A stretch of DNA of 49,168 nt, taken from IMG/VR virus record IMGVR_UViG_2565956718_000004; one strand, 5' to 3'. The translations under genes and the position numbers were made by a program. How positions within the stretch are numbered: position 1 is the first letter of the stretch; every line of letters starts with the position of its first letter. The notes beneath the pieces were generated by a model. It was given only the letters and a program-made list of their open reading frames with translations. It was not told the DNA's origin and made no database searches. The stretch is from a virus. Lineage: Duplodnaviria; Heunggongvirae; Uroviricota; Caudoviricetes. Positions 17,588-39,775 of the stretch are shown piece after piece.

Positions 17588-17650
17588 ATCAGCCTCCTGA
17601 AAATAAAAAAACCGCCGGAGCGGTTCGTGATGGTTACAGTGTGAACAGGG

Positions 17651-31851: not shown

Positions 31852-32007
31852 TTACTCCTCAGGTTCGTAAGCTGTGAAGACAGCGACCTCCGTCTGGCCG
31901 GTTCGGATTCGTACCTCGCAGAGGTCTTTCCTCGTTACCAGTGCCGTCACTATGACGGTTAAACAGATGACGATCAGGGCGATTAACATCGCCTTTTGCT
32001 GCTTCAT
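31852..32007 (-). CDS. hok: Hok/Gef family type I toxin
   Basis: 51-aa MKQQKAMLIALIVICLTVIVTALVTRKDLCEVRIRTGQTEVAVFTAYEPEE, the classic Hok sequence pattern. Confidence 0.85.
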   Translation of the reverse strand: MKQQKAMLIALIVICLTVIVTALVTRKDLCEVRIRTGQTEVAVFTAYEPEE

Positions 32008-32160
32008 AGCCTGCTTCTCCTTGACCTTTCGGTCCGTAAGAGGCTAATCTCTATGTGTCGCATAGATATGGCCTCAGATTAATGTTAAGCGTCTTGCAGG
32101 ACGCGTAATGTTAACTGGGGCTTTTCTCTATCTGCCTTTTGGTGTTCATGCCTGAGACAG
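32008..32160. other. hok mRNA leader / expected mok-sok regulatory region
   Basis: Structured region immediately upstream of hok where hok/sok loci carry the overlapping mok frame and antisense Sok RNA; exact sok ends not resolved. Confidence 0.4.
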
Positions 32161-32265
32161 ATAGCCTCAAGCACCCGCAGTCATTCTACTTAACTAAGAT
32201 TTCCCCGCAAACCGTTTTTGTCCGGCACAGTAAATATCCAACTAAACCAATGGCGTTCGCTGTAT

Positions 32266-32445
32266 TTACCGCCAGTATTCAATGCACATGACCGCCATGA
32301 ACACCCCTAAAAAAAGGGCATTTATATATCCAAATATTAATATCAAAACATCAACTTTTTCCATATACCTTGCTGTGAAGATGATGGGCATACATGATAC
32401 GAACAACCAGAACGCAACAAACAAAAACTGCAATGCGTTTTTCAT
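32266..32445 (-). CDS. small hydrophobic membrane protein (59 aa)
   Basis: Perfect RBS AGGAGG 7 nt upstream of ATG; MKNALQFLFVAFWLFVSCMPIIF...; AT-rich context. Confidence 0.5.
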   Translation of the reverse strand: MKNALQFLFVAFWLFVSCMPIIFTARYMEKVDVLILIFGYINALFLGVFMAVMCIEYWR

Positions 32446-32674
32446 TATTCCTCCTACAATCAATGTGCAATTACATTTAAACACACCTCAATTTGGCCGG
32501 ACATATAAATATCTAAACCAGAAAAAATCACTTACATAGCGTTACAAACTCTTTAGTCTAAATATTCATCGTAAAACATTCCCCATACTTATCAGCCCGT
32601 TCTGCGCCAGGTAGCTCATTGCCTTATCTGGGAATCTGTAATCAGGTTTCCGGATGCTGGTGGATTTTCGCGTT

Positions 32675-32932
32675 TTAGTTGTTCATAAAAGTGCACAGCT
32701 TTAACCAGTTCTTCTGATGTAACCGGGACTGGCGGGGCAGTGAATAAGGCCTGAATTTCATAGTTCGGCCTGTCGTTACAATCCTCTTTTTTCGGTACAT
32801 ATTTCCAGTCACCAGACCACTACTTCCCCTGAAAGTCCGTAACGCCTTTTTTTTCACGTAGCGATATCGCCATGCCACTGTTTTTGCTTGCCCCGCCGTT
32901 TCATGCCCTTCCTGATAATTAACCTCGCTCAT
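32675..32932 (-). pseudogene. Ead/Ea22-like gene remnant with disrupted reading frame
   Basis: Starts MSEVNYQEG like the conserved Ead/Ea22 start; protein-like sequence continues only in the -1 frame after an in-frame TAG; A-rich homopolymers. Confidence 0.3.
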
Positions 32933-33105
32933 TCATCGCCCCACTCATCACAATATGCTTCGACCGGAGTTTTTCCTGCTTCATAATCATCACGCCATGC
33001 TTCAGCATCAGCAGCACTGCCACCACGTAACTCTGCATAGTCCATTAACAGTTCATGCCATGCTTCAAAACTGACGTTGTATTTAGTTGAACCAAAATCA
33101 GCCAT
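32929..33105 (-). CDS. hypothetical protein (58 aa)
   Basis: ATG overlaps the stop of the upstream 60-aa gene (ATGGCTGA); RBS GAGGAAG. Confidence 0.45.
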   Translation of the reverse strand: MADFGSTKYNVSFEAWHELLMDYAELRGGSAADAEAWRDDYEAGKTPVEAYCDEWGDE

Positions 33106-33280
33106 TTTGCTCTTCCTCTTCGTCTTTTATTTCGTGATATGAGTAATTGCAGTAGTTAAAGAAAATATCTTTTGCTTCGTCATGTATTTCATCAGGCGTC
33201 GCATCATCATCCACTTCGAATTCATCCTCGAAATCTCCACCGGCTATTCCCGTTTCAATAATTATTTTAAACTTTCGCAT
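33098..33280 (-). CDS. hypothetical acidic protein (60 aa)
   Basis: 60-aa ORF rich in D/E, coupled to the downstream 58-aa gene. Confidence 0.45.
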   Translation of the reverse strand: MRKFKIIIETGIAGGDFEDEFEVDDDATPDEIHDEAKDIFFNYCNYSYHEIKDEEEEQNG

Positions 33281-33373
33281 TTAACTACCGCCCTTTCGGG
33301 CGGCCTCCTGATGTTCTGAGGGTGCAGAAATCCCTCCGGTTAAGGATTAAATTTTTAACAGAGCTAAATTTAA

Positions 33374-33730
33374 TTATTCAGTTCTGGATTTTGTCGCCCT
33401 GCGTATCCGCGCTTTCGCGTTACGCTCAATCTGAATTAGCTTTTCTATATTTTTTCGCCTTTCCTGTTCCTCCTGGCGCAATAGCCTTACATCATCTGCC
33501 AGTCTGGTTTCTCTTTTCGCCACAGAGAGCATCCAGTCAAATGGTTCCACAACTGCACCGCAGATTTTACAGCGGACCTGACGCTCTTTTTCGTCAACCC
33601 GGACAGAGGCGTGATGACAATATGGTCTTTCCGATGGCTCATAAAGAAAATTAACCTGATTACGAGGGTCATCCTCTTTTACCGGAAATAAAACGATATT
33701 ACTTAACTCATCCTCTGGTTTTATTTCCAT
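33374..33730 (-). CDS. zinc-ribbon protein of unknown function
   Basis: 118-aa product from MEIKPEDEL with RBS AGGAGAGGAG; CHH...CKIC motif; C-terminal basic coiled-coil. Confidence 0.55.
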   Translation of the reverse strand: MEIKPEDELSNIVLFPVKEDDPRNQVNFLYEPSERPYCHHASVRVDEKERQVRCKICGAVVEPFDWMLSVAKRETRLADDVRLLRQEEQERRKNIEKLIQIERNAKARIRRATKSRTE

Positions 33731-33851
33731 GCTCCTCTCCTTTGATGCGAATGCCAGCGGTAATTGAAGCCTGATAGCTAATTTCACTCACAGTACCGCC
33801 TCCTGAAAATTTAATGAACAATTCAATACGTTCTTTGGTAATAGTGGTCAT
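33708..33851 (-). CDS. small mosaic ORF (47 aa)
   Basis: RBS AAGGAG; MTTITKERIELFIKFSGGGTV-SEISYQA-SITAGIRIKGEEHGNKTRG joins segments resembling the ends of neighbouring genes. Confidence 0.35.
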   Translation of the reverse strand: MTTITKERIELFIKFSGGGTVSEISYQASITAGIRIKGEEHGNKTRG

Positions 33852-33861
33852 GTGTTACTCC

Positions 33862-34125
33862 TTAACCCGCAGTGCTTTCAACTGATGAGGGGAACAAAAT
33901 CTTTTCATCAAACCCTGCATTCATATCATGAACAGCAACACACCAATCCATCGACGAACGATTATCAAGAGCCTCCATGATTTCATCCATGCGGCGCAGG
34001 TCATACAGGTAAATGCTTTTATCGCCAATGGTGTAAAAACCAATTTTTTTCGGTGATGGGCAGCGATCAAGAACGTCCTGTAATTCGTTCAACCATGCCC
34101 GTTCTTTTTTTGTTAAAGTTGCCAT
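33862..34125 (-). CDS. hypothetical protein (87 aa)
   Basis: Start at MATLTKKERAWL with RBS AGGAGAG. Confidence 0.55.
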   Translation of the reverse strand: MATLTKKERAWLNELQDVLDRCPSPKKIGFYTIGDKSIYLYDLRRMDEIMEALDNRSSMDWCVAVHDMNAGFDEKILFPSSVESTAG

Positions 34126-34126
34126 A

Positions 34127-34534
34127 TCACTCTCCTTTCCCATGAAGCATAGCGGCGCGGCAGGCGTTCCATATTTCGGCAGCAATATCGCGCTCGCTAT
34201 CGGTTAATTTGTACGTGGAAACATAGCCAGAGAGCATTTCTACGTTTTCCGGAGTTGCTTCTTCCGGCACTATCGGCGCTGGAGGGGCGGCAAATAGATA
34301 TCCGCCAAAGTCAGGAAGCTCTCCAATGGCCTGTACGAACTTTTGTTTGCCTACGTCAACTCCTAATGGGTAATGAGCTATAATCTTTGCCACCGGCTCT
34401 GCTTCCAGCGATACCAGTGCAATTCGTGCCAGTTCTTCCGCTTCTTCTGCTGGCAGTACAACGTTGCTACCCGGTCCGTATGTTTCGCGCCACTGCTTGA
34501 TTGTCAGCAGTCGCCCTTTGGTAATAGTGATCAT
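34127..34534 (-). CDS. hypothetical protein (135 aa)
   Basis: 135-aa ORF tightly packed in the operon; MITITKGRLLTIKQW... Confidence 0.55.
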   Translation of the reverse strand: MITITKGRLLTIKQWRETYGPGSNVVLPAEEAEELARIALVSLEAEPVAKIIAHYPLGVDVGKQKFVQAIGELPDFGGYLFAAPPAPIVPEEATPENVEMLSGYVSTYKLTDSERDIAAEIWNACRAAMLHGKGE

Positions 34535-35046
34535 GCCGCGTTTCCTTCTTTCTTATTAACAATCACACCGTCATATATTTCATTAAGGTGCCCTCTCAAC
34601 TCCATGCGCCTTAATGCAGATAACATGTAATCGCATTCAACCTGCTTATTCCCAGTAAATGGCTTATCGTCAGGATTACCCCAACAGCAATTACCCCTGG
34701 GCCATCCATGTACTTTCCGTACTCTTCCGTTAACAACGTGAAGTAATCCCCAGCCGGGAGGTAAATCCTCAACTGAAATAATTTCCGGCTCACTAATAAA
34801 GAATCGCCAGTCGCCCATGCCAAGTGAGGGATTTTTACGGAAACGCTTTTTTCTATCTGCCAACAAGTCAGCACGAGAACACTTCGCCTCTATCAGGCAT
34901 GATGCTGAATTTCTGAATCCCATAGCATCTGGCTGTTCTCCGGTACTGGTTACAGCAACAAAGCGGTCATGAAAGCAAACCTTGAACCCGTTGCGCTTAA
35001 GGAACTTGTACGCAATCTGACAGAGTTCGCGGTGTGTTAACGCCAT
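34531..35046 (-). CDS. hypothetical protein, possible PD-(D/E)xK-type nuclease
   Basis: 171-aa ORF; segment EQPDAMGF...CLIEAKCSR resembles a D...E.K nuclease motif (inference only). Confidence 0.45.
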   Translation of the reverse strand: MALTHRELCQIAYKFLKRNGFKVCFHDRFVAVTSTGEQPDAMGFRNSASCLIEAKCSRADLLADRKKRFRKNPSLGMGDWRFFISEPEIISVEDLPPGWGLLHVVNGRVRKVHGWPRGNCCWGNPDDKPFTGNKQVECDYMLSALRRMELRGHLNEIYDGVIVNKKEGNAA

Positions 35047-35047
35047 A

Positions 35048-35797
35048 TCACTCTCCTTTGATGCGAATGCCAGCGGCGCGGATTGCAGCGATGACTTCAG
35101 AAACTTTGTATGCCATTACCGTTTGGTAATCATCGTGAAAATCTGTTCGATGAAGCATGCTGCTACGTTCCGGGAGCGATATTTCCCGAGCATCCAGTTC
35201 CTTAACGCGTTCCTCCAGTTCGTAGACCCTGCATTGTTCTCTATCATCAATCAGATATAACCCAAGACATTCGCTTTCTACCCAACCGCCAAAATCATGA
35301 TCGTAACGCTCACATGAAAACTCACCGTCACCGTCCTTTGTTGGAATGGTGTAACTATCTAATGGGCCACCATATGTCGGCACATTCCCCAATGTTGGAT
35401 GCTCAATCCACATGAAAAATGCACGTCCGGTTATTGGGCAAATATCTGGCCGCCATTGGTTACGAACAGCCTTGGTTTCGGATAATTCTTCAGCGTGTTG
35501 TTTTACTTCCTCAAGCTCAACTCTCAGCTTCCCTACCGTTAGCGCAATATCCTCGTTCTCCTGGTCGCGGCGTTTGATGTATTGCTGGTTCCTTTCCCGT
35601 TCATCCAGTAGTGCCAGCACGGTTTCTGGTCCGGTCAGAAATTTGAAGGCATTGAGCGCATCAATATCCACACCGTAATCTTTAAGTTCCTGTTCACTTA
35701 ACAAATCATCATCAGTTGGCAACATTAACAGGCGTTCCATTGCTGGAATTGCACGTTCTGCTGCCTCACGCAGTGCCTGGTAATTAATTTCGCTCAC
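35048..35797 (-). CDS. Ead/Ea22-like protein
   Basis: 249-aa ORF from GTG with RBS AAGGAGG; N-terminus (M)SEINYQALREAAERA is the Ead/Ea22 pattern; acidic coiled-coil. Confidence 0.6.
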   Translation of the reverse strand: MSEINYQALREAAERAIPAMERLLMLPTDDDLLSEQELKDYGVDIDALNAFKFLTGPETVLALLDERERNQQYIKRRDQENEDIALTVGKLRVELEEVKQHAEELSETKAVRNQWRPDICPITGRAFFMWIEHPTLGNVPTYGGPLDSYTIPTKDGDGEFSCERYDHDFGGWVESECLGLYLIDDREQCRVYELEERVKELDAREISLPERSSMLHRTDFHDDYQTVMAYKVSEVIAAIRAAGIRIKGE

Positions 35798-36237
35798 TGG
35801 TTGCCTCCTTTGCGAAGCTCTGCGGCTAAATACTCCAACGCCATTACCGGGACGCCAACAAGCACAGTTCCTTTAAACTTCTTATGCAGGTGCTCGATAG
35901 CTGTATCCACGCCCTGCGCCCGTACTTCAGCCAGGAAAGCATCGGTGGCCGGAGTTTCAGGAATCCGTCTCCTCATCAGTTCTATTGCATGATTGAACCC
36001 GAAATCTTCAGCAAGAGATACGTCATCCATATTGTCATTGTCGTCCTCAATATCCCGTGGTTCTGGAATTGCAGACTTTATTACCGCATTCTCCGCCGCC
36101 AGCGCCGCGCACTTGGCCTCAAGAGCGGCAACCACTTCCTGATGGTCTTTGTACTTAACGTATGAGCCGGAGATGTCATCACCTTCGGTGTTTAGCCATG
36201 CGTCATTGCAATTCACTGCGTAGGTTCTGATGCTCAT
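35794..36237 (-). CDS. hypothetical protein (147 aa)
   Basis: Start at MSIRTYAVNCNDAW with RBS GGGAGAG. Confidence 0.5.
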   Translation of the reverse strand: MSIRTYAVNCNDAWLNTEGDDISGSYVKYKDHQEVVAALEAKCAALAAENAVIKSAIPEPRDIEDDNDNMDDVSLAEDFGFNHAIELMRRRIPETPATDAFLAEVRAQGVDTAIEHLHKKFKGTVLVGVPVMALEYLAAELRKGGNQ

Positions 36238-36419
36238 GTTGATGCTCTCCCGCCCCTGACAGACGCCAGGCCAGTCAATAAAGTATCCGCACAATGCCTA
36301 CCCTCAGACGTGCGCGCAGGATAAATGCCGTTATGACCCGGCAAAATATATGCTACCCATTCATCTTGCGTTGCCTGTTCCGCCGCCTCGCGCAGTGCCT
36401 GATAGTCAATCTTGCTCAC
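36234..36419 (-). CDS. Ead/Ea22-like N-terminal fragment ORF (61 aa)
   Basis: GTG start with RBS AAGGAGG; first 16 aa (M)SKIDYQALREAAEQA Ead-like, remainder unrelated and overlapping the next gene. Confidence 0.3.
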   Translation of the reverse strand: MSKIDYQALREAAEQATQDEWVAYILPGHNGIYPARTSEGRHCADTLLTGLASVRGGRAST

Positions 36420-36900
36420 TGGTCGCCTCCTTCATAAAAATAATCCAGTGGGTCTTGTCACCCTTTCCTGTTCGTTGACCGATAACAGGCTTTCTGTCGG
36501 TCAGTGCCAATATCTGGCGAACAGGTATTTGCGTTTCATTCCATTTAAAAATCAGAACGCTGTATGGCCGCAACACACGAAAGGCTTCTTTAAATCCCTG
36601 CCGCAAATCATCACGCCAGGTATCTTTATTCAGCCGTCCATATTTCTTTCCCATCCAGGCGTTATCACCAACACGCTCAAGATGCGGAGGGTCGAATACA
36701 ACAACCGGAAACGATGCGTCTGCAAATGGTAATGCACGAAAATCTGCTATCAGGTCAGGGCTAATTATCAGTCTTCGTCCATCACATAATGTGTGCTCTT
36801 CCTTTCTGATATCGCTAAATATCGCCCGGTCGTCATTCTTATCGAACCAGAACATGCGGCTGCCACAGCACATATCAAGAATGGTTGCCGGTGCACTCAC
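36406..36900 (-). CDS. small DNA methyltransferase (DPPH motif)
   Basis: 164-aa ORF; ILDMCCGS (SAM-binding-like) and VVFDPPH (motif IV-like); GTG start with RBS AGGAGG. Confidence 0.6.
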   Translation of the reverse strand: MSAPATILDMCCGSRMFWFDKNDDRAIFSDIRKEEHTLCDGRRLIISPDLIADFRALPFADASFPVVVFDPPHLERVGDNAWMGKKYGRLNKDTWRDDLRQGFKEAFRVLRPYSVLIFKWNETQIPVRQILALTDRKPVIGQRTGKGDKTHWIIFMKEATSEQD

Positions 36901-37319
36901 TGCGCTACCTCCTGAAAATTACCCTGATAAAACGACAATATGCGCTGCATAACTTCGCTCTTCCGGCACTCGCGACAGATTATGTTCTGACGCCTGTCGT
37001 AGCGGCGTATTTCGCCGTCTGGTAATAGCCAGATAAGGTCCGGATCAACCACAGATGGTTTCTTCAGCTTTGCCCTTGAGAGTTTTTTGCGGGCGTTTTG
37101 CCAGTCCTTGCGCGCCTGCTCAGACGGGAATACTCCGTAACCGGAATTGTAAACATCACCACTGGCGGCCAGCTCCATGCATAAACGACCGACAGACGCA
37201 TGACTGACACCAATTTCATCCGATAACTGCCGAATCGTGCCTCGTCCGTTAAGGCGTACGAATTCCACGATCAGCCCTTTAATTTTTTCCCGCTCTTCTT
37301 GTGTAAAAACTTTTGCCAC
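36897..37319 (-). CDS. winged-helix DNA-binding protein
   Basis: 140-aa ORF; HTH-like IRQLSDEIGVSHASVGRLCMEL; C-terminal CxxC. Confidence 0.5.
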   Translation of the reverse strand: MAKVFTQEEREKIKGLIVEFVRLNGRGTIRQLSDEIGVSHASVGRLCMELAASGDVYNSGYGVFPSEQARKDWQNARKKLSRAKLKKPSVVDPDLIWLLPDGEIRRYDRRQNIICRECRKSEVMQRILSFYQGNFQEVAQ

Positions 37320-37423
37320 AAGCCCTCCTGAAAATTACCTCATGACCAGAAATTAACATATTAGACGTCAACTAGTTTTGCCGACTCGCGCCAACTATAC
37401 TGGCCGCACCCTTCAGTGCGACA

Positions 37424-38179
37424 TCAAGTCGCGCTTGTTACTGCCTTCGCTGTCTTTTTCCTGTAGCTTTCACCTTTCAGTTCGAACATATATCCGTGAT
37501 GGATCAGCCGGTCTGCCGCCGCCACCGCCATAGTCTCATCCACGAAGATGCTGCCCCACATGCTGAACGGATGGTTACTGGTTATCACCAGGCTCCCACG
37601 TTCATAGCGATGCGCTATTAACTCGAACAGTACTCCCGTTTCGGCGCTGTCGCGTTTGACATAGCCAAGATCATCCACCACTATCACCCGGTAGCGATCC
37701 AGTTTCAGTAGCAGCTCATTCAGTTTCAACTGCGCTCTGGCTTTACGTAGTTCCTGCAACAACTCTCCTGCGCTGTAGAACCGGGCCCGGTAGCCCTGGC
37801 CTACTACGCCATCCACGATCGCTGCCGCCAGATGGCTTTTCCCCAACCCGCTGGCTCCGAACAGCAGAACGTTTTCTCCTGCATCAACCCAGTCTGTCGT
37901 TTCACAGAGTTGCCGGAACTGAGCTCCATTCAGTTCCGGCACCTGACTGAAGTCGTATTCGCTTAGCGTTTTGGCAACTGGCAACCGGGCCTCCTTTTTA
38001 TAACGACGCAGTTTTTCACTCTCGCGCCACAGGAGTTCTTCATTGCATAGCGTCAGAAGATAGCGCGATGGTGTCCAGCCTTCTGCCAGTGCTCGTTTTT
38101 CCAGAGCGTGCCATTCAGCTCCAACTCGTGTCAGGCGTAGTTTACGCAGGCTGCGTTCAAGGTGATGGATATTGCTCAC
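37424..38179 (-). CDS. istB: IS21-family helper ATPase IstB
   Basis: 251-aa ORF with Walker A GASGLGKSH and Walker B VVDDLG; overlaps the istA stop. Confidence 0.9.
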   Translation of the reverse strand: MSNIHHLERSLRKLRLTRVGAEWHALEKRALAEGWTPSRYLLTLCNEELLWRESEKLRRYKKEARLPVAKTLSEYDFSQVPELNGAQFRQLCETTDWVDAGENVLLFGASGLGKSHLAAAIVDGVVGQGYRARFYSAGELLQELRKARAQLKLNELLLKLDRYRVIVVDDLGYVKRDSAETGVLFELIAHRYERGSLVITSNHPFSMWGSIFVDETMAVAAADRLIHHGYMFELKGESYRKKTAKAVTSAT

Positions 38180-39675
38180 TGCGAACCTCCCTTGCCACGC
38201 AGTAGTTGCTCATAACTGCTCAGGTTATGCTGTTTCACATTGACTACCGGCAACGCCTTTTCCTTTATACCCAGGAAGCGCATCAGCCGGTGCAGATCCA
38301 CGTTTCCCGGGGTATTCAGCATCTGCTCCATACCTTTTGCCACGACTGAGATATCGTCGTATCCTGCAGCCAGTTTCAGAGCATGTACCATCAGCCTGCC
38401 TGCCATGTCGGGTTCCAGATGATTACATAAGCGACGCCACAGCCTCCGCCATTCATCGTCTGGCAGGATGTCATTTCTCAGCGTTGCATGGCAGAACGCA
38501 CCGGGCTTTTTTGCCAGACTGTCGATCACATGTCGGAAGTCGATACGACGGGCCCGCGTCTTCCCTTTTTCTGGTCTGACACGTGGGCAGCTCATGACCT
38601 CGCTGCTGCCAACGTAACAGCTCAGACGATCGTCCCATAACCGGACCCGTAACAGTTGACCTACAAGCCGGGAAGGTACGCTGTAGACGACGTGCTTCAC
38701 ATTGATGGTACTGCTGCGGCTAACCCTCACAGTCAGCTCATCATAGTCAGCACTGCGACGAAGCGGCAGCGGTTTCAGATGAAGACGTTCTTCCTTGACC
38801 AGATCCTGATTGTTACGGTTGTGCCGCATAACCTGCTGAGTGATGAAGGCCTGATATTCTTCTATGGTGCTGAAGTCGTTACTGCCCCGCAGTATCAGCG
38901 CCTGACAGATACGCCTTTTCAGATGTCCGTGGGCACTTTCAACCGAGCCATTTTCGTGGCCCCGACCGGCATTATTGTGTACGCCCTGCATTCCGTAGTG
39001 CTGACAGAGAGCAGCATAACGCTCAGTCAGCTCGCGGCGTCCATCTTCGCCCTGTTGTTTCCATGCTGCCCTCAGGCTGTCCGTTTTATGTTCTACCGGC
39101 ACTCCGCCCAGTTGTCCGAGGGCTTCCTGCAGACCTTCAGCCAGAGCAGAGAAGCTCTCACCACCCAGCACAACCCGCATCCAGCTCCAGTGGCTCCATT
39201 CCAGACGGAAGTGATACAACTTATGCGCCAACAACTTACCGGCGATGGTGACAACTACACCTTTCAGTTCAGTAAAGTCCGACAGACCTCGCAGACCGGG
39301 CTGATGTCGCTGGCGGAACATGACCTCCTGCTCTGCACCATACTGTAGCTTCCATTCGCGGACCCGCCGTTGCATTGTTCTTCGAAGGCTGTTGGGGTAC
39401 TGGCCGGGATATTTATCCTGTAGCATCTCCAGCAGAGTTGTTGGTGTCAGAGCCGGCCTCTCTTTCAACAGAGGAACAAGCATGCTGTCCCACACAGCTT
39501 CCAGAGGATCTTTGCGTGTGCGCCAGTGCCGAACACTGTTTTTTGCCCACTCTCCTTTTTCGATCCGACGACCAGAACGGACTGAGATACCAGCCTTCAT
39601 GGCCGAGATATGCTGAGTTATACCTTTCTTACGCTGAGTCATATAGTAACTGACCTGAGAAGTATTGAGCGTCAC
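38176..39675 (-). CDS. istA: IS21-family transposase IstA
   Basis: 499-aa ORF; N-terminal HTH and DDE/rve-like core (HENGSVESAHG). Confidence 0.85.
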   Translation of the reverse strand: MTLNTSQVSYYMTQRKKGITQHISAMKAGISVRSGRRIEKGEWAKNSVRHWRTRKDPLEAVWDSMLVPLLKERPALTPTTLLEMLQDKYPGQYPNSLRRTMQRRVREWKLQYGAEQEVMFRQRHQPGLRGLSDFTELKGVVVTIAGKLLAHKLYHFRLEWSHWSWMRVVLGGESFSALAEGLQEALGQLGGVPVEHKTDSLRAAWKQQGEDGRRELTERYAALCQHYGMQGVHNNAGRGHENGSVESAHGHLKRRICQALILRGSNDFSTIEEYQAFITQQVMRHNRNNQDLVKEERLHLKPLPLRRSADYDELTVRVSRSSTINVKHVVYSVPSRLVGQLLRVRLWDDRLSCYVGSSEVMSCPRVRPEKGKTRARRIDFRHVIDSLAKKPGAFCHATLRNDILPDDEWRRLWRRLCNHLEPDMAGRLMVHALKLAAGYDDISVVAKGMEQMLNTPGNVDLHRLMRFLGIKEKALPVVNVKQHNLSSYEQLLRGKGGSQ

Positions 39676-39775
39676 GCCATTTCCTGTTGGATCATGTAAA
39701 TGACACTCAGGTTACAAAACCGGCCAGAATAATCGGCGCCAGGCGGACTGAGTTATTGTCGTCTCATATTAACAC

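Follow-up and report, generated by a model that had tools for sequence, protein, structure and literature searches.

Translational junctions between shuffled accessory genes in the nin-like region of a defective lambdoid prophage

Susskind and Botstein reportedly put forward a modular theory of lambdoid phages. Conserved boundary sequences of tens of base pairs (bp) lie between otherwise unrelated early ('metabolic') modules, occur at module edges and at breakpoints and were proposed to be foci of homologous recombination, according to two articles that cite Clark et al. (2001) on phage HK620, reportedly with seven such sequences (PMC2327257, PMC3029335). Here we describe short strings shared between unrelated genes at 32.6–37.4 kb of the IMG/VR virus record IMGVR_UViG_2565956718_000004 (Caudoviricetes), a stretch of 49,168 nucleotides (nt) that is called the window below. 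The region belongs to a lambdoid (Qin/Rac-type) Escherichia coli prophage that is defective; it forms the densely packed, nin-like accessory portion of the early-right operon, and every gene in it lies on the minus strand. The label 'nin-like', given in the original prediction from the bare sequence, is positionally correct, as the region lies in the span from the replication genes to RusA and Q.

Both homologous and illegitimate processes have been viewed as sources of phage mosaicism (PMC2327257), and phage recombinases act on short or diverged homologies (PMC2327257, PMC3945230). For Rad52-like phage recombinases, mosaic recombinants between phages and defective prophages were obtained experimentally (Martinsohn et al., 2008; De Paepe et al., 2014), and some of these relaxed recombination events were homologous on one side and illegitimate on the other (PMC2327257). 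Two genes of the region encode Ea22 proteins, which combine a conserved N-terminal portion and a coiled coil with a variable C-terminal domain and share the terminus K/RGE (PMC7093339). We favour a reading of the region in which its genes are cassettes joined by short conserved junctions that allow crossover, with ordinary decay and illegitimate recombination in addition, and we put its probability at about 75%.

Junction elements shared by unrelated genes

The region contains ten exact direct repeats of at least 12 nt, compared with 0.92 expected from 200 Markov-1 simulations (simulated maximum 4, longest 17), and the six longest all lie at stop/start gene junctions. A chance origin was ruled out by shuffles and by these simulations. 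Read in the gene sense, the shared strings are translational junctions, each made up of the end of the upstream coding sequence, a Shine-Dalgarno site, a stop and a start that overlap or adjoin and, in many cases, the opening codons of the gene that follows. Three elements, which we call linkers A, B and C, recur in this form.

Linker A, (GCCGCCCAGCTTCG)CAAAGGAGGCAACCA-GTGAGCRARATTRAYTAYCAGGCACTGCGTGAGGCGGCAGA, is about 60 nt long and encodes the upstream end ...LRKGGNQ, a stop overlapping the GTG start and the first ~16 codons of an Ead protein, MS(E/K)I(N/D)YQALREAAE. Copy 1 (35749–35819, GCTTCGCAAAGGAGGCAACCA-GTGAGCGAAATTAATTACCAGGCACTGCGTGAGGC) and copy 2 (36371–36432, AAGGAGG-N6-GTGAGCAAGATTGACTATCAGGCACTGCGCGAGGCGGC, again an upstream gene end with the first ~16 Ead codons) share 82% identity over 62 nt, when 35749–35810 is compared with 36371–36432. 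As had been predicted, this start segment heads both the gene for a protein of 249 amino acids (aa; GTG at 35797, MSEINYQALREAAERA) and a 61-aa open reading frame (ORF; GTG at 36419, MSKIDYQALREAAEQA). Two degenerate copies also proposed there are borderline when taken alone, and we accept both in view of their relatives. The copy at 32884–32945 (MSEVNYQ...) is 65% identical over 62 nt and is accepted because the intact relatives begin with MSEINYQ, while the copy at 33769–33791 inside a 47-aa ORF (VSEISYQA), with 83% and 78% identity to the two Ead starts over 23 nt, is accepted because in 36 loci it opens a genuine ORF behind DUF977.

Linker B, (CGCGCC)GCTGGCATTCGCATCAAAGGAGAG-TGA-N-ATG, encodes ...AAGIRIKGE, a stop and the start of the next gene; GGCATTCGCATC is a stretch of it and AAAGGAGAG is its Shine-Dalgarno site. 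Copy 1 (35042–35081, CCGCGCCGCTGGCATTCGCATCAAAGGAGAG-TGA-T-ATGGC) encodes ..RAAGIRIKGE, the stop and the start of a 171-aa gene and holds a 26-mer (35051–35076) and an 18-mer (35042–35059). The same 26-mer recurs exactly at 33735–33760, in copy 2, which holds the Shine-Dalgarno site and the start of a 118-aa gene; none is expected in shuffles, and the pair agrees with the original prediction after correction of one position (35053) to 35051. The shared C-terminus AGIRIKGE of the 47-aa ORF and the 249-aa protein was likewise correctly recognized. Copy 3 (34121–34160, CCGCGCCGCTATGCTTCATGGGAAAGGAGAG-TGA-T-ATGGC; ..AAMLHGKGE, stop, start of an 87-aa gene) is degenerate, with 78% identity to 35042–35081 over 40 nt including the exact 18-mer. 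In phage lambda itself, the 21-nt core of linker B forms the ea22/ea8.5 junction. Linker B terminates Ead proteins with differing C-terminal domains and also non-Ead proteins. In loci retrieved without selection for linker B, GGCATTCGCATCAAAGGAGAG-TGA-(T/G)-ATG was almost invariant, synonymous sites in the codons for G, I, R and I included, and the preceding residues varied, which indicates that linker B is conserved at the DNA level.

Linker C is the 16-mer GGTAATTTTCAGGAGG, comprising the last codons of DUF977 and a Shine-Dalgarno site, and it flanks DUF977. Its 12-nt part ATTTTCAGGAGG had been predicted to precede three genes, and it is indeed present exactly, on the minus strand, at 33799–33810, 36908–36919 and 37324–37335, but the first of these copies precedes only an internal GTG of the 47-aa ORF. 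The copies at 36908 and 37324 extend to the identical 16-mer and bracket DUF977. Copy 1 (33799–33810) is a remnant of the DUF977 3' end; copy 2 (36894–36923) combines the last DUF977 codons and the Shine-Dalgarno site with GTGAGTG, the start of a methyltransferase gene; and copy 3 (37324–37339), an exact 16-mer repeat of 36908–36923, lies in the spacer and ends 5 nt before the start codon of DUF977. The copy pair, ~416 nt apart around DUF977, recurs in many viral contigs. A fourth exact ATTTTCAGGAGG lies at 17593–17604, after a terminator-like hairpin with a T-run and before a GTG that is the start of the major capsid gene according to coordinate mapping to an annotated relative. As it serves there as Shine-Dalgarno site, the 12-mer by itself can turn up as an ordinary ribosome-binding site.

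IMG/VR was scanned for each linker string, and the flanking 160 nt, from about 300 viral contigs, were clustered into sequence classes. Linker A joined 22 upstream and 10 downstream classes in 48 combinations, linker B 8 and 19 classes in 35 combinations and linker C 7 and 12 classes in 14 combinations, a few of the matches to C being due to chance. Between representatives of different classes, pairwise identity falls to ~25%, the random level, within 10–20 nt outside each linker. These flank classes and the drop in identity bear out the idea that the shared strings are junction or 'boundary' sequences linking many unrelated genes. In a separate scan of species genomes (L319–L360; L and a number denote individual loci or contigs), the 21-nt core of linker B was found in many very short, often low-coverage contigs of unrelated taxa, including Streptococcus, Prevotella, Streptomyces and Bacillus. 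The one such contig that was checked, L319 (1002 bp), is 100% phage lambda from the ea22-ea8.5 region, which points to contamination of public assemblies with lambda DNA, and the taxonomic spread of linker B in species genomes was set aside as uninformative.

The strings might be kept solely for translation and protein motifs (Shine-Dalgarno sites, stop/start coupling, the terminal peptides of Ead proteins), their recurrence being convergent or selected and unrelated to recombination. An AGGAG-type site and overlapping or adjacent stop and start codons are present in every linker, the fourth ATTTTCAGGAGG is just a Shine-Dalgarno site, that of the capsid gene, and the Ead N-terminus falls within the Pfam Ead_Ea22 domain. 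The complementary motifs GCCGCC..GGCGGC and CAGTG..CACTG in linker A had prompted a folding test, but in six folds linker RNAs did not exceed shuffles in stability (z from −0.4 to +1.3), which is expected of open ribosome sites; together with the lack of Rfam matches in the linkers, this led us to reject RNA structure in them. However, identity spans 26–62 nt and thus extends well beyond the Shine-Dalgarno site, and synonymous positions upstream of the site are near-invariant before unrelated genes, which indicates shared descent of DNA rather than convergence. High-identity blocks between phages also begin and end in linker elements. Moreover, the two roles are not exclusive, since a coupling function would explain why recombinants survive. 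We therefore consider a purely translational role unlikely, and a dual role of the linkers in translation and recombination likely.

Homology breakpoints and exchanged cassettes

To locate breakpoints, positions 32400–37358 were aligned to 306 viral loci, and all alignment ends not coinciding with locus ends were collected (969 ends). Clusters of ends lie within 40 nt of a start codon in 24 of 65 cases (19.6% expected, p = 9e-4), and these clusters hold 53% of the 969 ends. Among alignments of at least 300 nt and at least 95% identity, 224 of 275 ends (81%; 57 of 85 distinct positions) fall into eleven short conserved elements that make up 13.9% of the region; nine of the elements, predefined from repeats within the window, account for 184 of the 275 ends in ~10% of the region. 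Mapping of breakpoints had been proposed as a check of the prediction, and the ends do concentrate on the linkers, in a test that is partly circular for reasons given below. The largest cluster is at linker C copy 2, with 131 ends at 36894–36926, and 38 ends lie at copy 3 (37318–37342). Linker A has 42 ends at copy 1 (35809–35832) and 28 at copy 2 (36431–36434), and linker B 55 at copy 1 (35036–35086) and 44 at copy 3 (34129–34143).

We regard the clustering as supportive; individual relatives are clearer. The two closest differing relatives switch sequence exactly at the Ead-start linker copies, as the original prediction would have it. L313 keeps 99.8% identity as far as 36430, a position in linker A copy 2; from there it is unrelated until 36894, and its DUF977 is diverged. 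In place of the methyltransferase it carries an unrelated gene of 267 nt. The O104:H4 prophage (L002) differs in a 74/137-nt patch that ends at linker A copy 1.

Not all of the mosaicism is confined to gene boundaries, as had been supposed, since part of it lies inside genes. The 135-aa gene (34127–34534) is of a type with a SLEAEP hinge, ...ARIALASLEAEP(V/I), which at 34388–34440 joins an N-terminal module (MITITKGRLL..ELARIALV) to a C-terminal one. In the pool of loci, this hinge connects at least 8 N-terminal with at least 15 C-terminal modules, and 43 alignment ends lie at 34388–34403; the N-terminal module of the 135-aa protein also heads a 432-aa protein (P7) and a 309-aa DUF551 protein (Ss-VASD). 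A second intragenic breakpoint zone is a conserved island in the coiled-coil segment (...LALLDERERNQQYIKRRDQENEDIALTVGKLRVELEE) of the 249-aa Ead protein at 35493–35629, with 98 ends at 35493–35514 and 94 at 35594–35629. The plasmid-prophage P7 shares with the window a block of 97.6% identity from 34389 to 35617, that is, from the SLEAEP hinge to the Ead coiled-coil island. This 1.2-kb block (upf88.3, upf89.0 and upf89.5 in P7) takes in the 249-aa Ead gene from its coiled coil on, the 171-aa gene and, of the 135-aa gene, the N-terminal module, which indicates that cassettes move between lambdoid and P1-type phages, and, as it is bounded by intragenic segments, that shuffling acts on protein domains as well as on genes. 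In Shiga toxin (Stx) phages, the cassettes of the P7 block are found near the left end of the records, alongside Ead genes.

From the observed repeats, junction positions, combinatorial contexts, clustering of breakpoints and nature of the short ORFs, we infer that homologous recombination at the linkers causes the exchanges. The same 16–60 nt beside unrelated genes in many phages would provide patches of homology, at which co-resident phages and prophages could cross over, so that whole genes would be exchanged with translation intact. Recombinants would keep every gene expressed because the linkers are translational junctions. The SLEAEP hinge and the coiled-coil island of Ead would play the same role for protein domains. 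Superimposed on this are decay, by a TG slippage that splits one Ead gene and an A-run frameshift with a stop in another gene, and illegitimate events, by which a join with 2-nt microhomology gave the 47-aa ORF and an older deletion left a 27-codon remnant of an Ead gene. Such a combination fits the view that both kinds of process feed mosaicism (PMC2327257). Integron-type cassettes (attC/IntI) were rejected as an explanation, as the linkers are direct repeats lacking inverted repeats and hairpins and there is no IntI; the sole integrase in the window is a lambda-type prophage Int, from 48038 onward.

Several points weigh against exchange by crossover at the linkers. An element that is more widely conserved than its flanks will end alignments at its edges by whatever mechanism, which makes the clustering test partly circular, and the breakpoints themselves served to define the SLEAEP hinge and the Ead island, two of the eleven elements. 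Linker searches supplied the viral loci, which are neither unbiased nor phylogenetically independent. Conservation of the linkers could be partly functional, as translation signals, and then be neither cause nor result of recombination. No single-strand-annealing recombinase turned up in the early-left region of the prophage, where xis and int are accompanied only by the gene for an 823-aa Rv2179c-like exonuclease. Finally, the only join that could be traced to both parents, that of the 47-aa ORF, shares 2 nt and is illegitimate.

The last point would fit the model of Hendrix, random illegitimate recombination followed by selection for intact genes, with linkers as leftovers of ancestry at gene edges and not preferred sites. 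The deletion that produced the 27-codon Ead remnant apparently also involved ~2 nt, relatives contain irregular truncations and frameshifts of Ead genes, gene blocks are permuted, and roughly one in five high-identity ends is not in a conserved element. Against this model, strings of 16–60 nt recur between dozens of gene pairs, which random joins would not recreate, and recent exchanges, with flanks of 97–99.8% identity, end inside linkers. As a general account of the region we judge it very improbable, and we retain cassette exchange at conserved junctions as the better explanation.

Short reading frames as fragments and scars

The original prediction interpreted the short ORFs of the region as several nested deletion products, which does not hold for two of the three. 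The 61-aa ORF (36234–36419) and a 147-aa ORF (35794–36237) together form a split Ead/Ea22-like gene, called A here (35794–36419): by Pfam Ead_Ea22, the former (E = 3.6e-14) corresponds to positions 1–45 and the latter (E = 1.1e-9) to positions 48–138 of the family. Alignment to an intact 228-aa allele, present in the O104:H4 prophage and five viral contigs, revealed a 2-nt insertion, TGTG instead of TG, within 36290–36293. The frameshifted allele occurs in 10 loci in different prophage backgrounds and the intact one in 6. The 61-aa ORF is thus the front of an Ead gene split by slippage and not a deletion product. Because its frame ends with ATGA, in overlap with the start codon ATG of the 147-aa frame, coupled translation of both halves would still be possible.

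The ORF starting at 32932 with the Ead-like MSEVNYQ is a pseudogene (32616–32932) with a +1 frameshift in an A8 run (32847–32854) and an in-frame TAG (32820–32822), positions that we obtained by reading the sequence; RefSeq lists it as 'frameshifted; internal stop'. Intact relatives have 119 aa (L018, L314) or 151 aa (L051) and extend from MSEINYQEGHE... to ...IGIKGE. Near the 3' end of the pseudogene, a 14-nt sequence at 32639–32652 is present once in the window and twice, 57 nt apart, in L029, the difference being a 57-bp indel with direct-repeat flanks.

The 47-aa ORF (33708–33851, RefSeq WP_000207966.1) is a true composite, the only one among the three, and consists of three parts. Positions 33811–33851 are the first ~14 codons of a MTTITKERIELFIKN-type gene, 33799–33810 are linker C copy 1, and 33708–33791 are a 27-codon 'mini-Ead' carrying the 26-mer. 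Its start is identical to the MTTITKERIELFIKN-type gene for 66 nt in pairwise comparison, and is exact to L018 up to TTCATTAAA; from AATTTTCAGG onward the ORF is exact to L003, the two matches overlapping by 2 nt. From AATTTTCAGGAGG onward it is identical to the arrangement DUF977 end, mini-Ead, zinc-ribbon gene, and the join shares AA only. Sixty alignment ends lie at 33806–33812, within the ORF. The resemblance of its N-terminus to that of the 135-aa gene, noted earlier, amounts to 19 of 20 nt (33833–33852 against 34516–34535). The ORF was correctly seen to be composite, but the traced join shares 2 nt and not a linker.

The mini-Ead (MSEISYQ-ASITAGIRIKGE...) lies directly between DUF977 and the zinc-ribbon gene in 36 loci, and L314, L211 and L075 have a full-length Ead gene at the same position. 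By inspection against the full-length 249-aa Ead gene, its own deletion join seems to share ~2 nt as well, and other irregular Ead truncations and frameshifts occur among the relatives. One might regard the mini-Ead, in which linker A is joined to linker B, as the 'empty slot' of a dedicated exchange site for Ead-type effector domains, though we consider this rather far-fetched. If it were true, an empty slot could capture any Ead cassette by two short homologous crossovers, prophages could rapidly diversify a host-directed protein, and the slot would work like polymorphic toxin loci, in which C-terminal domains and orphan modules are swapped.

The 47-aa ORF or its 27-codon core could also be a functional small protein instead of a scar. 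The start codon, Shine-Dalgarno site and open frame of the mini-ORF are kept in 47 copies, the protein is annotated (WP_000207966.1), and the chimeric form recurs, its upstream junction sequence being found 11 times among the contexts of the 26-mer. On the other hand, a Pfam profile search gave no family match for the 47-aa ORF, including PF13935, and its parts map to three unrelated parents. The 11 alleles of the mini-Ead differ by 7 nonsynonymous and 3 synonymous changes, with the stop codon lost in one, and the 3' part of the ORF is needed anyway as ribosome site and start of the zinc-ribbon gene. Lacking any sign of purifying selection, the mini-protein was rejected, and we consider it extremely unlikely; the 47-aa ORF is better read as a scar.

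Genomic setting and relation to described systems

Positions 32400–37358 match, at 99.98% identity, a prophage that several E. coli chromosomes carry, Ecol_316 among them. The gene order in the matching prophage begins with a cro-like regulator, YdaT, a helix-turn-helix (HTH) replication gene, DUF977 and an S-adenosylmethionine (SAM)-dependent methyltransferase, continues with three 'ead/Ea22-like' entries and several small hypothetical genes, and ends with DUF7167, a pseudogene, hokD/sok, DUF968, RusA and the Q antiterminator. In the window the prophage is defective. ISEc10 of the IS21 family (37359–39768; istA 38176–39675, istB 37424–38179), flanked on both sides by the duplication TGTTAAT, occupies the 40-nt spacer that separates DUF977 from the HTH replication gene. 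Through this insertion the nin-like genes have probably lost transcription from the early promoter. The Ecol_316 prophage, identical in other respects, has the same insertion sequence inside the portal gene, which is intact in the window. A scan of the region for promoters and terminators gave no excess and fewer sites than shuffles, consistent with a single operon. Scanning 30–40 kb against Rfam gave sok (32005–32176) as sole match; the hokD toxin gene (51 aa) and the sok antisense RNA (RF01794, 106.7 bits) occupy 31852–32176, immediately downstream. Within the region there is a single true intergenic gap, at 33280–33401 between the zinc-ribbon gene and DUF7167; it has a GC-rich hairpin, GCCGCCCGAAAGGGCGG, adjoining the Shine-Dalgarno site, and further breakpoint clusters at 33280–33288, 33326–33340 and 33374–33401.

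DUF977 (36897–37319, 140 aa; PF06163, E = 2.7e-31), between two copies of the 16-mer, is annotated as such in the identical prophage, and the methyltransferase cassette (36406–36900, 164 aa) as class I SAM-dependent methyltransferase, with weak Pfam matches below threshold. The 249-aa Ead/Ea22-like gene, B (35048–35797; PF13935, E = 3.1e-29; WP_001289900.1), is intact and is followed by the likewise intact 171-aa gene (34531–35046), which is widely conserved in phages: in tblastn searches, 254 phage records cover at least 80% of the protein, a Pseudomonas phage with 60% identity over 94% of it and a Vibrio phage with 52% over 92%. Pseudogene flags of the annotation pipeline PGAP ('frameshifted', 'incomplete') on fragments of the 171-aa and 135-aa ORFs look like annotation artefacts, as both frames are open. 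The 118-aa zinc-ribbon-like gene (33374–33730), the commonest downstream partner of the 26-mer, has a weak match to Zn_Ribbon_TF (E = 1.6e-4, below the curated cut-off) and is annotated as hypothetical.

The 249-aa protein and the split 61 + 147-aa protein are members of the Ead/Ea22 family of P22, lambda and Stx phages (PF13935) and have the same architecture. They differ in location: in lambda and Stx phages, Ead genes lie in the exo-xis region of the leftward operon, whereas here they belong to the rightward operon, within its nin-like region, with two copies in tandem and a 27-codon remnant. We explain the K/RGE end common to Ea22 proteins as the site where ribosomes bind for the next gene, not as a feature of the protein; the KGE end is found on non-Ead proteins as well. 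For annotation, it follows from the nature of the short frames that the annotated 61-aa and 47-aa ORFs are fragments and not genes.

In relaxed recombination by Rad52-like phage recombinases, the mixed events, with homology on one side and an illegitimate join on the other, fit the scar in the 47-aa ORF. No such recombinase gene was found in the early-left region of this prophage, and exchange is deduced here from comparison of sequences. As in the boundary sequences of lambdoid phages, short conserved sequences lie between unrelated flanks at gene and module edges, and breakpoints coincide with them. The present linkers differ in that they are resolved to single genes and are translational junctions, and some lie within genes at domain hinges. 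They provide a base-resolution case of the shuffling of accessory genes in lambda-like prophages, in which a swapped gene arrives with a working ribosome site. The current understanding of phage mosaicism is unchanged by these results; the phenomenon was already known, and these linkers, with their identity as translational junctions, are a well-resolved further example of it.

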